Origin: Nitrospirales bacterium
GTDB lineage: Bacteria; Nitrospirota; Nitrospiria; Nitrospirales; UBA8639
Direction: 5' to 3'
Assembly (NCBI GenBank): GCA_963422365.1
Contig: OY729426.1
Location: 640,001 to 704,000 of the forward strand
Length of the DNA stretch: 64,000 bases
The first letter of the stretch is position 1. Each line of letters starts with the position of its first letter. The position numbers were made by a program. This document shows, piece by piece, positions 42,501 through 48,500 of this stretch.

Positions 42501-45500
42501 CTTCACGTGGATGTGATGGACGGGCATTTTGTGCCCAACCTGACGATCGGCCCTCCCATTGTCGAATCGCTTCGAAAGGTGACCTCCCTCCCCCTCGACG
42601 TCCATCTCATGGTGACGAATCCAGATACCTCTATTGCCGATTTTGCCCAAGCCGGAGCCAAGTATCTCACCGTGCATACGGAAACCTGCCCCCATTTGCA
42701 CCGCACCATTCAATGCGTCAAAGAGCATGGGGTCAAGGCAGGGGTCACGCTCAACCCTTCGACCTCCTTGAGCGCCATTGAAGAAGTCATCGCGGATGTC
42801 GATCTGGTGCTGATCATGTCGGTCAACCCAGGGTTCGGAGGACAAATCTTTATCCCTGCCTGTTTAGATAAAATACGTCGGGCCAGAGAGCTCATTGATC
42901 GTACCGAAAGCCAGGCCTTACTTGAAGTGGATGGCGGAATCAAAGTCGATAACGCCGCTGCCGTTCTCAAAGCCGGGGCCGATGTCTTAGTCGCGGGGTC
43001 AGCGATTTTTCATAGCCCGAATTATTCAGATACGATTTCCGCGTTCCGCACCATTGCCCACGATCTTCCATCTCGGTAATCCCATGCAGACCACGGCTGT
43101 GTATGACAGTTTGCACCCTCTTGAAATCAACCTGCTCGCAGCTTTTGATCAATCTGACGACAAGCCGGTCTCTGATTCGTCATTACACGAAATCTCGCAA
43201 CTGGAGCCTTCTCAAGTCAGCATGGCCTTGGGGTGGCTTCAAGCAAAAAAGTTGGTCTGCATCCATTCTGAAATCAGCATGGCCTGGGTAGGGTTGACGG
43301 AGGTAGGGCGGCGGTATCTGGCAACCGGTTCTCCACTTGAGTGGATCGTCAAGACTTGTCGGCAAGGAGCTGAAGAAGGGCACTCGTTCACCGTGAAAGA
43401 TTTACAGGGCCTGGGTACGTTTCCCCCCACGGAACTCAGTCGAGCCATTGGTCTTCTCAAAAAAGAAGGCGCCATCTCCTTAGGGGCCGGAGGCCATGTT
43501 GAAACCACTGATACGCCAAGTCCCACTCTTGAGAAGCTCCAACATCTCCTTCACCAGTTACAGGAGCGCCGTCAAGCGCTATTGTCCTTTTCGCCGGACC
43601 AACAAATGCTTTTACGCCAGTACTCGGTGAAACGGGGAAGTGCTCAGGAGCCGTTTCGTATTGAGGAACACATTCAACGCGAATACACCACGACAAAAAC
43701 GGGGAAGGCGGTGGCGAAACGCTGTCCCGCGGGCGCAGCGGAAGAAGTCTCGCAACTGACGCCTGATATGCTCAAGGATGGCTCATGGCGCAGCAAGTGT
43801 TTCCGGAAATATACCATTACCCTGAGACCGCCACGGGTCGCTCCAGGACGGAGGCATCCGTACAGAGAATTTCTTGATCTGGTCAAACACAAATTGGTCA
43901 GTATGGGATTTCAGGAAATGCGAGGCCCCTTGGTCGAAACCGAATTTTGGGACATGGATGCCCTGTATATGCCCCAGTTCCATCCGGCTCGGGCCATTCA
44001 CGACGTGTACTTTGTGAAAACGCCGACCCATGCGGATGCAATCGCCGAACCGTTTCTTTCTCAAGTGGCTGCTACCCATGAGCATGGCGGACCCACCGGT
44101 TCAAGCGGTTGGGGTTATCACTATGATAAAGAGCGGGCCCGTCGTTTGATTTTGCGAAGCCAGGGCACGGCCGTTTCGGCTCGAACCCTGGCTTCGAATC
44201 CCCTGGTACCAGGAAAATATTTTTCCATGGCACGGTGTTTTCGTTATGACCAAGTCGATGCGACGCATGCCACGGACTTTTTTCAGGTCGAAGGGATTGT
44301 GCTGGGCGAAGAGATTAATTTTCGAACGCTGCTTGGCCTGCTAACCCTGTTTGCCAAAGAAATGGCGCAAGCTCAGGAGAACAAGTTTTTCCCGGCCTAT
44401 TTTCCTTTTACGGAACCATCCGTGGAACTGCACGTCCGTCATCCGAAACTCGGATGGATGGAATTAGGGGGCGCGGGCTTGTTTCGGCCGGAAGTGACCC
44501 AACCCCTTGGGGTCACGGTCCCGGTGGTGGCGTGGGGATTGGGTCTGGATCGAATGGCCATGGTGGCGCTAGGGGTTCATGATATTCGCGAACTCTTTTC
44601 CGTCGACCTTGAAAAAATTCGCACCCTGCACGGACGGTTTGCTTAAGTGTTGTCAATCGTATTTGCAAAACGAAGCCCCCTTGCAGGTTTGCAGCCTGCA
44701 CAGCAAGGCATGAAAATGGCATACTTTTGTCATCCTAGCAGTTCCCTGTCGGTCATTCCCGACGTTTGTAATCGGGAATCCAATCCGAGGCACCGAGGAC
44801 AAGAGGAAAACCCTGTATTCCCGCTAACAGCCGACGGGAATGACCGAAGGGAAAACCCTAGTCTTTCCTGAGTGATGACGTTATGCCCACGATTTCTTTT
44901 TTTCAAAAAGATTTAGAACGGCTTCTCGGTCAAGCAGCTCCGCTTGAGCAATTGGAGTCGTGGTTACCGTTGGTCAAAGGAGAATTAAAAGACTGTACCC
45001 ACGCCACCGGTGAAATTCGGCTTGAGCTTCAGGATAGCAACCGACCGGATCTGTGGAGCGTGGAAGGGATTGCTCGACAGATTCGGATCAAGTTACAAGG
45101 GTCGCCACTTGCCTATCCCTTTTTTGATACCAAGACTCGCCCCAAACGGCACATGCTGGTGGCCAAGGGACTCGAACGGGTTCGACCGTATGTTGCGGCA
45201 TGTACGGCCACGGGGTACACCGTCACCGAGGAAGGCTTGGCGCAACTCATTCAGGCGCAGGAGAAACTTGCCGATCTGTATGGACACAAACGAAAAACCG
45301 TCTCGGTGGGAGTGTATCGCCTTTCCCAGATTCAGTTTCCGGTGACCTATGGATTGGTGAAACCCTCTGAAGCCCGATTCACGCCACTTGGGTTTTCCGA
45401 AAAACTGACTCTTCAAGATATCCTCACGGTTCATCCTAAAGGCATTGAGTACGGCTCCATTCTCGCCGACCAGCCTCTGCTGCCCTTACTGTGGGATACA

Positions 45501-48500
45501 GAAGGCCAAATTTTATCCTTTCCTCCTATCATTAATAGCCAGGACATCGGGCAAGTCCACATCGGCGATTCAGCCTTGTTGGTGGAAGTGACAGGCACGG
45601 ATATGCGAATGGTCCTCCTAACCCTCAACATTTTTGCCACGAATTTAGCCGACCGGGGCGCGGCCATTGACCCTATAGACATTCAGTATCCGTATGACAC
45701 GGAGTGGGGAAAGTCGATCAGAACCCCTTGCGACATCAGCGATATGCAGCAAATTTCTCTGAAAGCCATTGAATCCGCCCTCGGACTGCCCATCGACATG
45801 GACCTCGTTCAACAAACCTTGCGGGCGTATGGGTATGAAGTCAAAACGAGTCGAAAGACGCTCGCGGTGCGGTTACCGCACTATCGAAGCGACTTCATGC
45901 ATCCGGTGGACGTGGCAGAAGACGTGGCAATCAGTCTAGGGTATGACTCGTTTGTGCCGGCGATGCCGGCCCAATTCACCGTAGGCTCGTTATCTCCTCT
46001 AGAAAGGACATCCGATTATATCCGCGATCACATGATCGGGCAGGGGTTCCAGGAAATCTTTTCCAATATTTTGCTGTCTCACGAGGAGCTTGTGGAACGG
46101 ATGAGACTGACCGCCTCAGACCACGATCACGTCGTGGAAGTGGATAACGTCATGTCACAGAGTTTTTCATGTCTCCGCTCCTGGATTGTGCCTTCGCTGT
46201 TGCGCGTGGAGACGGCCTCGCCTCATGCGTTTTACCCTCATCGGCTTTTTGAAATCGGTGAAGTCGCGATTCCTGATTTGAGTCAGGAACTCGGGTCACG
46301 AACGGCGATTCGCATGGGGATCGTCATTGCCCATCCCCATGCGAACTTTTCTGAAGTGCATACCTGCCTGGATGTGCTGATGTTTTATGTCGTAAAAGAC
46401 TATGAACTCGAGCCTCTGAATCACGGATCCTTCCTCGACGGACGAGTCGGACGCATTCTCTGCCAAGGGCAATCCAGAGGATTGATTGGCGAATTGCATC
46501 CGGAAGTCCTGGAGAACTGGGGCATCTCCGTACCCATCTCGGTGTGTGAACTTGACGTGGACTGGCTGTGTACCGACAGTCCGTAACCAGGCACAGGGTG
46601 AGAAGCAGGCAGGAGTACTCATACCCTTCCCCGCGTATAGAACGGGTTATGCCGAGGCTTTTGCCAGCTCCGTCAGAGACTGAAACCCGGCTGGATCATG
46701 AATGGCCATCTCCGACAACATCTTCCGATTCAAGGCCACATTGGCTTTGGTCAACTCATGGATAAACCGGCTGTACGATAACCCGTGTACTTTGACCGCC
46801 GCCGAGATTCTGGCAATCCACAGTCGTCGAAAATCTCTTTTTCGATGTCGTCGGCCAATGTACGCGTAGACCTGGCCTTTATCGACTGATTCCGTCGCCG
46901 TCCGAAATAGTTTGCTTTTCGCCCCATACTGCCCTTTGGCTAATTTCAACCGTTTCTTTCTACGGCGGCGAGTTTGAGGGCCTCCTTTGACACGTGGCAT
47001 GACCTAGCACCCCTTCGTTTTCAGGATGGTGAAAATAATCTCCCCCCTATTCAGGGGCCTTGCTTTGTGGCCTTGTTGAGCCACCGCTCTTGGAGAACGT
47101 ACCGTGACTGCTCGTCTAACGAAATGTTTGTGGTTCAGGGGTTTGCGTGTTCAAAATCAGGCATAGGGTAAGAGTCTGGCCAGCGAAGCCTGATCTGATT
47201 CCGCGACCACCACCGTATCGTTCAGACGACTTTTCCGTTTGGCGTTTTTCGTGGTCAGGATATGTCGCAATCCCGCCTTTCGCCTCATGAACTTTCCGCT
47301 TCCCGTGCGTTTAAAACGTTTAGCGGCTCCCGAATGACTTTTTAACTTCATGCGTGCCATGTGCTCTTTCCCCTAATTTTTCGGTGCGACAATCATAAAC
47401 AGATTACGCCCTTCCATTCTGGGTTCCATTTCAACCGTTCCCGCATCCTTGATCTCTTCCCGAATTTTTCCCATCGCCGACCGACCCAGCTCTTGCTTCG
47501 CCATTTCTCGCCCTCGAAACATGACCGTCACTTTGGTTTTGTTCCCCTCTGCTAAGAAGTCGACTATTCGGCGAATTTTGGTCTCGAGGTCATGCTTGTC
47601 CGTTCGCGGACGAAGTTTAATCTCCTTGACCTGCGTCGACTTTTGATGTTGACGCGTTTTGTGTTCTTTCTTGCTCTGCTCATACTTAAATTTTCCATAA
47701 TCCATAATCCGGCAGACCGGAGGCGTGCTGGTTTGGGCGACTTCCACCAAATCATACCCTCCCTCATTGGCCTGCTTGAGCGCATCCGTCGTCTTCAGGA
47801 TCCCCAGTTGCTCCCCTTCTGGGCCGATGACCCGGACTTCGGGAACTCGAATCAGGTGATTCACCCGATGTTTGGCGGCGACCGGTCTACTCATTCGTGA
47901 CTCGATGAACCGGTCAATTGTTCCGATGGCATATCTTGTTGAATCAGATCCAGTACCTCTGTGATGAGCAGCGTCCCGACGTTCGTCCCACTGCGTTTTC
48001 GGACTGAGACCGCCTTCGCCTCCCGTTCCCGGTCTCCCACGACGAGCATGTAGGGAATTTTGGCTTTTTCGGCTTCGCGGATTTTGAGCCCAACTTTTTC
48101 ATTTCGCAAGTCTATCGCGACTCGCAGTCCGGCGGTCGCTAAGTGATCCCGGACATGCGCGGCATAATCCGTTTGTTTGTCGGTAATGGGAAGCACGATG
48201 GCTTGGACGGGTGCCAGCCACGTCGGAAAGGCCCCGGCATAGTGTTCAACTAAAATGCCAAAAAACCGTTCAATGGATCCCAGCAGCGCCCGATGAATCA
48301 TGATCGGTTGGTGCGCCGCGCCATCCTCCCCGATGTAGGACAACCCAAACTGCTCGGGATTATTAAAGTCAATTTGAACCGTTGAGCATTGCCAGGCTCT
48401 CCCCAACGCGTCATGGATTTTCAGATCAATTTTCGGTCCGTAAAACACCCCTTCGCCAGAATCAATGTCATAGGGAAACCCGCTTCCTTTCAGAGCGGCT

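Follow-up and report, generated by a model that had tools for sequence, protein, structure and literature searches.

Archaeal-type phenylalanyl-tRNA synthetase as the only PheRS of a Nitrospirales bacterium and its distribution in the phylum Nitrospirota

The two phenylalanyl-tRNA synthetase (PheRS) genes in the 64,000-nucleotide stretch of Nitrospirales DNA analysed here (the window) were initially annotated as being of the archaeal type, which raises the question of whether this bacterium depends on such an enzyme and, if so, how it came to have it. The genes pheS and pheT lie behind rsmB and rpe, and adjoin rplT, the final gene of a bacterial thrS-infC-rpmI-rplT cluster:

41001..42395, + strand: rsmB, 16S rRNA m5C967 methyltransferase (TIGR00563, 362.8 bits; synteny)
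42399..43079, + strand: rpe (TIGR01163, 313 bits; synteny), with 4 nt from its stop to the pheS ATG
43084..44646, + strand: pheS, archaeal/eukaryal-type PheRS alpha subunit, 520 aa (NF003210, tRNA-synt_2d)
44647..44882, + strand: pheS-pheT spacer, 236 nt, with a long inverted repeat (REP/MITE-like; sequence, RNA fold)
44883..46586, + strand: pheT, archaeal/eukaryal-type PheRS beta subunit, 567 aa (TIGR00471, Pfam, 2cxi alignment)
46647..47000, - strand: rplT (L20; TIGR01032, 156.7 bits), convergent with pheT across a 60-nt gap
47157..47360, - strand: rpmI (L35), 67 aa (translation; match in related loci)
47373..47894, - strand: infC (IF-3; TIGR00168, 220.5 bits)
47891..49864, - strand: thrS, bacterial-type ThrRS (TIGR00418, 739.3 bits)

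The pheS ORF spans 43054..44646 (+), and a TTG codon at 43054 provides an alternative start that would extend the product to 530 aa. The spacer is strongly structured (RNA fold of -83.5 kcal/mol, z -4.17; none of 200 shuffled sequences folded as well), and its core motif, GGGAATGAC, occurs 71 times genome-wide.

PheS matched the curated archaeal-type alpha model NF003210 with 551.5 bits against a cut-off of 350, its residues 9-516 covering model positions 3-492 of 496, and Pfam tRNA-synt_2d at 243-513. It has the long alpha form of this enzyme type (~500 aa, with an N-terminal extension ahead of the class II core), and PheT the short beta form (~550-600 aa). PheT scored 448.1 bits against TIGR00471 (pheT_arch, cut-off 282.65), with residues 1-560 on model positions 1-548 of 551, but 116 bits against TIGR00472 (pheT_bact), which is below the cut-off of 402.65 and covers only residues 290-564 and model positions 409-693. 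The assignment of both subunits to the archaeal type was therefore upheld, the archaeal-type models having been passed and the bacterial one failed. The closest solved relatives were the Pyrococcus horikoshii PheRS beta chain (2cxi, 4.3e-65) and the cytosolic PheRS of eukaryotes (3l4g, for example), whereas for bacterial PheRS chains the values on the C-terminal half were no better than 1e-5 to 6e-12. The likeness to eukaryotic cytosolic enzymes (3l4g, 8s8b) extends to both subunits, PheT 51-560 being aligned with beta chains (~1e-54 to 1e-58) and PheS 216-511 with alpha chains (~1e-62 to 1e-64). With canonical bacterial PheRS (TIGR00472; PDB 1b70, 3pco and others) the window's enzyme shares a homologous class II core and B5/catalytic-like region, and the presumed function and the thrS-infC-rpmI-rplT neighbourhood are retained. 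However, the beta subunit has 567 aa instead of ~800 and lacks B2 and FDX-ACB, the alpha subunit has 520 aa instead of ~340, and the genes are convergent to rplT, not downstream of it.

Single Pfam matches to tRNA-synt_2d and tRNA_synthFbeta had been recorded before; both were seen again, the latter at 363-559 of PheT, but B5 was also matched at 291-354. Neither tRNA_bind (B2) nor FDX-ACB was matched in PheT by Pfam (E<=0.01), and PF01588 and PF03147 are present in bacterial PheT of the same phylum. The initial annotation had described the beta subunit as devoid of both B3_4 and FDX-ACB, which holds for FDX-ACB but not for B3/4. Pfam B3_4 was unmatched in PheT, but residues 1-354 match the 2cxi fragment (its residues 1-348) over the full length, and that fragment spans the B3/4 editing domain. 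Hence, the missing match does not prove the domain absent, and on this alignment PheT is predicted to carry it, the Pfam miss being a sensitivity artefact. The layout of PheT is thus an N-terminal B1-B3/4 region, B5 and a catalytic-like domain. The positions aligned with the editing site of 2cxi, as reportedly defined by Sasaki et al. 2006, are L203, S212, N218, E235 and T237, of which E235 differs from P. horikoshii, where it is Asp. As judged by homology and by being the sole PheRS in the genome, PheST would assemble as an alpha2-beta2 heterotetramer, charge tRNA-Phe and remove mischarged Tyr-tRNA-Phe.

The genome, a single contig of 2,495,695 bp that is 98.58% complete, was subjected to profile searches, which revealed one pheT_arch locus over the cut-off, one tRNA-synt_2d and zero pheT_bact loci over the cut-off. 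This bears out the absence of a bacterial-type copy claimed earlier. The profile searches confirm that the predicted sole tRNA-Phe-charging enzyme of this nitrite-oxidiser-type host is the archaeal/eukaryotic version of PheRS and not the bacterial one.

Archaeal-type PheT exceeded the pheT_arch cut-off in 173 of 301 Nitrospirota genomes and bacterial-type PheT the pheT_bact cut-off in 122 of 301, and none of the 301 had both types over cut-off. The type is constant within every family, being archaeal in f1-f13, f16, f17, f20, f21 and f39, and bacterial in f14, f15, f18, f19 and f22-f38. Families with the bacterial type account for 125 of the 301 genomes. The archaeal type is universal in the window's class (116 genomes, of which 115 were sampled and one is the window's own). 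That the two types replace each other inside the phylum, as had been proposed, is borne out by these family-consistent counts.

The tRNA substrate does not follow this division. All 43 tRNA-Phe genes (43/43) have the GAA anticodon and A73, and U occupies position 20 in 17 of 18 archaeal-type Nitrospirota and in all 22 of the bacterial-type ones, while G was never seen there. The tRNA-Phe of f39 is identical to that of the bacterial-type family f24 (73/73, with the same GGGCAGT acceptor stem), as is that of f17 to that of bacterial-type f14 (73/73). At the level of gene sequence, this establishes that tRNA-Phe is unadapted to the enzyme type, as sister lineages with different types share identical genes. 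The enzyme differs from the P. horikoshii and eukaryotic ones in having a bacterial host and a bacterial-looking tRNA-Phe substrate (U20 or C20, not G20).

In bacterial-type families the order is thrS-infC-rpmI-rplT-pheS-pheT; canonical co-directional rplT-pheS-pheT was found at eight bacterial-type loci (f15, f19, f22, f26, f27, f28, f31 and f35), with thrS and infC in view at six of them. The archaeal-type pair is convergent to rplT at 10 of 20 family-representative loci, and many archaeal-type Nitrospirota keep the order rsmB-rpe-pheS-pheT; flanks 3' of pheT are not conserved among loci. Xenologous gene displacement in situ, in which a distant ortholog occupies the operon slot of the displaced gene, is said to have been described by Omelchenko et al. 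in 2003. The same-slot arrangement is seen in f39 (locus L169), where the archaeal pair is co-directional within the bacterial slot (thrS>infC>rpmI>rplT>pheS>pheT), whereas the pair in the window adjoins rplT but is convergent, behind rsmB-rpe. There is no simple derivation of the window's convergent arrangement from that of f39, which, with the unconserved flanks, counts against the history favoured below.

In phylogenetic trees, archaeal-type PheT records of Nitrospirota, spirochaetes, Planctomycetes, Armatimonadota, Eisenbacteria and Xenobia formed one clade apart from archaeal sequences. The branch that separates it from archaeal representatives received an SH-aLRT of 99 (95 rows, LG+G4), 97 in a PheT-only tree (49 rows, C20 PMSF) and 97 in FastTree (158 rows). 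Nitrospirota were one clade in the PheS+PheT tree, although only moderately bootstrapped (UFBoot 69/SH-aLRT 96), and f21, which has a long branch, fell outside the group when PheT alone was analysed under PMSF. The likeness to Treponema and Borrelia noted before is, on these trees, best read as membership of one pan-bacterial archaeal-type clade, and the Thermococcus link was not sustained, the nearest named archaeal representatives being DPANN and Bathyarchaeota proteins. The existence of one bacterial clade apart from archaea suggests that Nitrospirota joined an existing bacterial xenolog lineage, and the immediate source was probably another bacterium. As the trees are unrooted and the archaeal side is almost without named sequences, both the donor and a route from bacterium to bacterium are deduced from a single bipartition. 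Direct uptake from an archaeon, independently of spirochaetes and other bacteria, might be read from the Swiss-Prot matches to Thermococcus and Pyrococcus in the initial annotation and from the P. horikoshii beta chain as best solved relative of PheT. It is nevertheless very improbable, given that all bacterial sequences lie on one side of the branch (97-99, three trees, two models) and that identity is 39-48% to bacterial representatives against 31-40% to those on the archaeal side. Archaeal contamination or misassembly of a metagenome-derived genome, in favour of which nothing was seen, can hardly be entertained for a single 2.5-Mb contig with flat GC over the locus (0.52-0.54), bacterial rpe and rplT on either side of pheS-pheT, the same gene order in dozens of independent Nitrospirota assemblies, and pheST as the only PheRS of the genome.

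The direction and number of switches, for which the initial annotation had no tree, were assessed against a species tree built by a quick search from a single gene, RpoB, and having a polytomy at its base. Family f19 and a large bacterial-type clade lie on different basal RpoB lineages, and both have an in-operon, B2-less PheT of ~700 aa; this argues that the bacterial type in the rplT operon is ancestral. The best RpoB tree implies three type changes, two of which are forced by starred branches. In that tree f17 branches beside f14/f19, which have the bacterial type (95), and f39 joins the bacterial-type clade (83). In the PheST tree, by contrast, f17 pairs with f39 (100/100), and the pair nests together with f13 and f20 (99/96). 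The archaeal type thus appears to have displaced the bacterial one at least once and probably three times. Under a purely vertical history with exactly one switch, the archaeal-type families would be a true clade, and RpoB would misplace f17 and f39. The perfect constancy of type within families agrees with it, as do the borderline AU tests, in which neither all 25 archaeal-type rows as one RpoB clade (delta lnL 34.2, p 0.078) nor a PheS+PheT clade of the other 20 Nitrospirota rows that excludes f17 and f39 (p 0.061) was rejected, so that a single switch keeps a minor but appreciable probability. The three changes in the RpoB tree and the nesting in the PheST tree oppose it, and tRNA-Phe offers independent evidence linking f39 with the bacterial-type clade (f24) and f17 with f14. 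An archaeal type ancestral to the whole phylum, with the bacterial type regained from other bacteria, could accommodate the f39 pair in the canonical slot after rplT, the full-length bacterial PheT of f14, which lies away from rplT and is 50% identical to Geobacter PheT and 41% to that of f26, and the off-operon full-length PheT of one f27 genome (G198). These two off-operon genes indicate that bacterial PheRS genes were also replaced in Nitrospirota. Even so, such a history is improbable in view of the textbook rplT-pheS-pheT order in eight bacterial-type families and the derived B2-less PheT common to two basal lineages; regaining the exact operon arrangement twice is unlikely, and the PheST sequences of f17 and f39 fall within the diversity spanned by the large archaeal-type clade.

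The preferred account is an old xenologous displacement by members of one bacterial clade, with the bacterial type ancestral and probable spread inside the phylum, and we regard it as likely overall. The pheST genes would be xenologs from an archaeal-type PheRS clade circulating among bacteria, which long ago displaced bacterial pheS-pheT and would now charge ordinary bacterial tRNA-Phe (GAA, A73). The ancestral Nitrospirota state was most likely a bacterial enzyme in a thrS-infC-rpmI-rplT-pheS-pheT operon. The archaeal type would have replaced it in the ancestor of the large clade that includes the window's class, with vertical descent there since, and probably also passed inside the phylum to f17 and f39, landing in f39 precisely where the native pair had stood in the operon.

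According to Andam and Gogarten (2011, Biol Direct 6:47, PMC3191353), the alpha (513-528 aa) and beta (514-573 aa) subunits in the spirochaetes Spirochaeta, Treponema and Borrelia both have the archaeal form, which is the sole PheRS and marks a clade, other members of the phylum having the bacterial form; direct transfer from Thermococcales was inferred. The strings 'Nitrospir' and 'Leptospirillum' are absent from the text of that paper, and our literature search did not find a paper on archaeal-type PheRS in Nitrospirota. The Nitrospirota resemble spirochaetes in subunit form, similar sizes, sole copy and a split phylum with a clade-marking type, and in our trees spirochaete-named and Nitrospirota proteins fall in the same bacterial clade. 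The present case differs in the phylum, in a clade that spans at least six bacterial groups, in having DPANN and Bathyarchaeota, not Thermococcales, as nearest named archaea, and in showing replacement within the operon slot and a probable spread inside the phylum.

An ancient gene replacement of a kind already known here divides a single bacterial phylum in two, and inter-domain aminoacyl-tRNA synthetase replacement, for which spirochaetes are the textbook case, is extended to a second, ecologically important phylum (nitrite oxidisers and relatives) as part of one multi-phylum bacterial clade. With both types in sister lineages that have identical tRNA-Phe, and the foreign genes once in the native slot, Nitrospirota offer a clean natural experiment in the swapping of an essential two-subunit translation enzyme. 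Both pheS and pheT_bact belong to common bacterial marker sets. Bacterial pheT marker models miss 173 of the 301 sampled genomes, which is relevant to marker-based phylogeny and completeness estimates, and PheS or PheT trees would misplace archaeal-type Nitrospirota. Inhibitors of bacterial PheRS need not affect these organisms. More tentatively, and with somewhat less than even confidence, the 'spirochaete' archaeal PheRS may be one bacterium-adapted xenolog lineage across at least six phyla that made three displacements in Nitrospirota (two intra-phylum, one in the rplT-pheST slot) with tRNA-Phe unchanged, while in other families the native B2-less form gave way to foreign full-length bacterial PheRS. 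If so, PheRS would be an unusually exchangeable 'core' gene in Nitrospirota.

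The genes for the two subunits of the window's phenylalanyl-tRNA synthetase (PheRS) lie at the positions reported in the initial annotation:

43054..44646, + strand, pheS ORF (520 aa counted from the ATG at 43084)
44883..46586, + strand, pheT ORF (567 aa)

In a profile search, PheS matched the full-length alpha-subunit model NF003210 with 551.5 bits (cut-off 350) over residues 9-516, a length and coverage that match the archaeal/eukaryal form, and Pfam placed its class II core (tRNA-synt_2d) at residues 243-513. PheT matched the curated archaeal-type model pheT_arch (TIGR00471) with 448.1 bits (cut-off 282.65) over residues 1-560, whereas the bacterial-type model pheT_bact (TIGR00472) remained below its cut-off (116 bits versus 402.65) and was limited to residues 290-564. 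The Pfam domains of PheT are B5 at 291-354 and a catalytic-like domain at 363-559, with no Pfam match to the bacterial domains tRNA_bind (B2) and FDX-ACB. Among solved structures, the closest to PheT was PheRS-beta of P. horikoshii (2cxi, 4.3e-65, query 1-354), eukaryotic cytosolic PheRS was also among the best matches, and bacterial PheRS chains aligned with the C-terminal half only (1e-5 to 6e-12). As judged by these sequence comparisons, the homology of PheS and PheT is unambiguous. The GC content is even over the whole locus, and the closest proteins are deposited as plain PheRS subunits.

The B3/4 editing domain had been described as missing. A Pfam match is indeed absent, but the domain itself cannot be called absent, since the first 354 residues of PheT align without large gaps with the 2cxi fragment, which spans this domain. 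On that alignment, the missing match is an issue of sensitivity. The positions reported to be important for editing in P. horikoshii, L202, S211, N217, D234 and T236 (Sasaki et al. 2006), have L203, S212, N218, E235 and T237 as their counterparts in the window's PheT.

The window's genome (one contig of 2,495,695 bp, 98.58% complete) contains a single pheT_arch match and a single tRNA-synt_2d gene. No pheT_bact match over the cut-off was found in it, in agreement with the earlier claim that a bacterial-type copy is lacking. Apart from that at pheT, pheT_bact gave two weak matches, both confined to model positions 41-123, an OB-fold tRNA-binding module that occurs in other proteins too. Outside the window, positions 2494290-2495140 near the contig end and 56929-57779, about 57 kb from its start, share at least 851 identical bases that cover an OB-fold tRNA-binding domain; this repeat may reflect either a real duplication or an artefact of assembly closure.

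In the window, rsmB-rpe-pheS-pheT (+) converge on rplT-rpmI-infC-thrS (-), with a gap of 60 nt after pheT. The start of pheS lies 4 nt past rpe, and co-transcription of pheS with rsmB-rpe is plausible. The 236-nt spacer between pheS and pheT (44647-44882) carries a long imperfect inverted repeat, GGTCATTCCCGACG ... CGACGGGAATGACC, and its predicted fold is much more stable than those of shuffled sequences (z -4.17). The core motif GGGAATGAC was counted 71 times in the genome of 2.5 Mb, where a random 9-mer would be expected about 19 times over the two strands, and the repeat looks like a dispersed REP/MITE-like element. An Rfam scan of window positions 40000-52000 revealed no Phe leader, T-box or L20 leader; the sole match was a tRNA, identified by ARAGORN as tRNA-Val. 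This tRNA-Val(GAC) lies directly upstream of thrS, with a stretch of low GC content after it (0.42-0.44 versus about 0.53; 49971-51500 for both); together they may form an integration hotspot. Upstream of the locus are larB and larC, for biosynthesis of the nickel-pincer cofactor, and then pdxA (36734-39650).

Both beta-subunit models were applied to an identical set of 301 Nitrospirota genomes, each with a completeness of 90% or more. The family labels used here (f1-f39) differ from those of the initial annotation.

Beta-subunit types in families of Nitrospirota
pheT_arch: 173 over cut-off; 176 genomes in families f1-f12 (window's class), f13, f16, f17, f20, f21, f39
pheT_bact: 122 over cut-off; 125 genomes in families f14, f15, f18, f19, f22-f38

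Each of the 176 genomes in the archaeal-type families had a pheT_arch match at E <= 1e-58, the weakest being split matches, and the archaeal type was present in 116 of 116 genomes of the window's class (115 sampled plus the window's own). In the bacterial-type families, three genomes were without an intact gene, namely G107 (split over contig ends), G016 and G222. Within each group the opposite model gave cross-matches only (1e-17 to 1e-41), to the common C-terminal region. None of the 301 genomes had both types and no family was mixed; the division of the phylum described at first thus holds in a sample about four times larger.

Outside the window's genome, the closest proteins are from Nitrospirales and Nitrospirae, with identities from 91% down to about 62% (73% for Candidatus Nitronereus thalassa). 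At E <= 1e-30, 983 proteins were found among 1.84 billion 50%-identity representatives. A motif from the alignment of these representatives, scanned over one genome per prokaryotic species, gave at least 600 rows, 599 of them confirmed. By record title, the best 80 of the 599 confirmed loci comprise 56 Nitrospir*, 11 with spirochaete names, five 'uncultured bacterium', three Planctomycetes/Phycisphaerales, and one each of Candidatus Xenobia, Armatimonadota, Candidatus Eisenbacteria, 'Deltaproteobacteria' and 'archaeon'. Of 81 genomes sampled from the GTDB phylum to which one of the spirochaete-named records belongs, 14 carry pheT_arch. Hence, archaeal-type PheT is patchily distributed over several bacterial phyla.

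In three unrooted trees, one branch separates all bacterial archaeal-type PheT from the archaeal representatives, with support of 97 (FastTree, 158 rows), 99 SH-aLRT (LG+G4, 95 PheT rows) and 97 (LG+C20 PMSF mixture model, 49 rows). The 'archaeon' record (L116) falls on the archaeal side, where the named representatives are Aenigmarchaeota, Woesearchaeota, Diapherotrites and Bathyarchaeota. Of 30 representative proteins, five could be tied to an organism name, four of them archaeal and one a generic 'bacterium'. Given the few representatives with names and the unrooted trees, a link to Thermococcales is neither shown nor excluded. Relationships between phyla within the bacterial clade were unstable.

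With PheS and PheT concatenated (45 rows, 1084 columns, careful search), the 24 Nitrospirota rows formed one clade (UFBoot 69 / SH-aLRT 96). Within it, the families of the window's class grouped at 85/91, and a second group, supported at 99/96, comprised f13-like rows, f20 and the pair f17+f39, the pair itself having 100/100. The long-branched f21 fell outside the Nitrospirota group in the PheT-only PMSF tree. For RpoB, 50 Nitrospirota representatives were placed in a tree with four outgroups, and the phylum divided at its base into four lineages. The first is f18, of bacterial type; the second joins archaeal-type f17 to bacterial-type f19 and f14 (support 95). The third consists of 21 rows, all of archaeal type, from f13, f16, f20, f21 and the window's class (support 99), and the fourth, at support 83, unites archaeal-type f39 with a bacterial-type clade of 21 rows. 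In f21 (L229, L230), the RpoB ORFs are 1724-1728 aa long and agree with the family model from position 264-272 onward only, so that RpoB of these genomes has a large N-terminal extension or insertion.

On the RpoB tree the trait has to change three times, and well-supported branches make two of these changes necessary. The tRNA-Phe gene of f39 is identical to that of bacterial-type f24 (73/73) and matches those of seven other genomes of the bacterial-type clade at 72/73, the acceptor stem GGGCAGT being common to all; the f17 gene is identical to that of f14 (73/73). These identities provide independent support for the RpoB placement of f39 and f17. Against three changes stand two simpler histories: a single clade of all archaeal-type rows was not rejected by the AU test on RpoB (delta lnL 34.2, p 0.078), nor was a clade of the other 20 Nitrospirota rows without f17+f39 on PheS+PheT (delta lnL 25.6, p 0.061). 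At least one switch to the archaeal type in the phylum is certain, and three are likely, not proven.

The direction of change was assessed from gene order. The co-directional arrangement thrS-infC-rpmI-rplT-pheS-pheT is found in bacterial-type f15, f19, f22, f26, f27 (G080), f28, f31 and f35, the view of the operon starting at rplT or rpmI in f26 and f27 (G080).

Gene order at 20 archaeal-type family-representative loci
convergent to rplT, as in the window: 10/20; f1, f2, f3, f4, f10, f11, f13, f21
co-directional after rplT, the bacterial slot: 1/20; f39 (L169)
without rplT in the fetched stretch: 7/20; f7, f9, f16, f17, f20
contig too short: 2/20; f8, f12

Among the matches listed, none of 23 loci with titles other than Nitrospirota had rplT within about 4 kb; L122, with an 'uncultured bacterium' title and a Nitrospira-like gene order, was left out of this count. 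No common flank downstream of pheT was found between f39 and its bacterial-type relatives, a flank unconserved even among bacterial-type families, and no simple route by which the f39 arrangement could have turned into the convergent one. Neither in f39 nor in bacterial-type loci are rsmB and rpe near pheT. Inside the operon, bacterial PheT has a derived form: it is about 700 aa long, lacks B2 and is common to f19 and the large bacterial-type clade. As this form occurs on different basal RpoB lineages, the bacterial operon was probably there first and the archaeal type came in later.

Bacterial-type PheT of Nitrospirota itself occurs in two forms (L036, L043, L171, L178, L181, L288, L289 versus L045, L173-L177, L287). 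One, of about 700 aa and B2-less, lies inside the rplT operon in most families including f19; the other, full-length at about 800 aa, lies off rplT in f14 (4/4 loci), one f27 genome and f18 (context cut off). PheT of f14 is 50% identical to Geobacter PheT and 41% to the f26 form, and bacterial PheRS may likewise have been replaced in the phylum. At an f15 locus (L176), the operon is interrupted by about 1.6 kb with three small ORFs on both strands between canonical pheS and pheT. Over-long archaeal-type PheT frames were seen in a Nitrospirales record (L105:4001-6184, a match of 2184 nt with a trimmed ORF of 742 aa versus about 565) and at two Nitrospira-family loci (L134, L152); insertions or read-through from upstream could explain them.

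All 43 tRNA-Phe genes, obtained out of 55 genomes, have anticodon GAA and A73. U20 is present in 17 of 18 archaeal-type and all 22 bacterial-type Nitrospirota; C20 was seen in the window's genome (contig positions 2001571-2001646, outside the window) and in the Xenobia-titled genome (L255), the remaining 41 genes all having U20. G20 of tRNA-Phe is an identity element for eukaryotic PheRS, and a switch to this archaeal/eukaryal base was found in none of the 43. The swap thus took place without any visible change in the tRNA, in line with an easy exchange of the enzyme.

Replacement of the bacterial form by archaeal PheRS, marking a clade, has been described for Spirochaeta, Treponema and Borrelia (PMC3191353); the terms 'Nitrospir' and 'Leptospirillum' are absent from the text of that article. 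In full-text searches and the articles consulted, no statement of archaeal-type PheRS in Nitrospirota, Leptospirillum or Planctomycetes was found; paywalled surveys or web databases could contain one. To the known cases are added here the clean split of one phylum and a single bacterial clade of the archaeal type that spans several phyla, together with replacement in the operon slot and a tRNA-Phe that remained unchanged.
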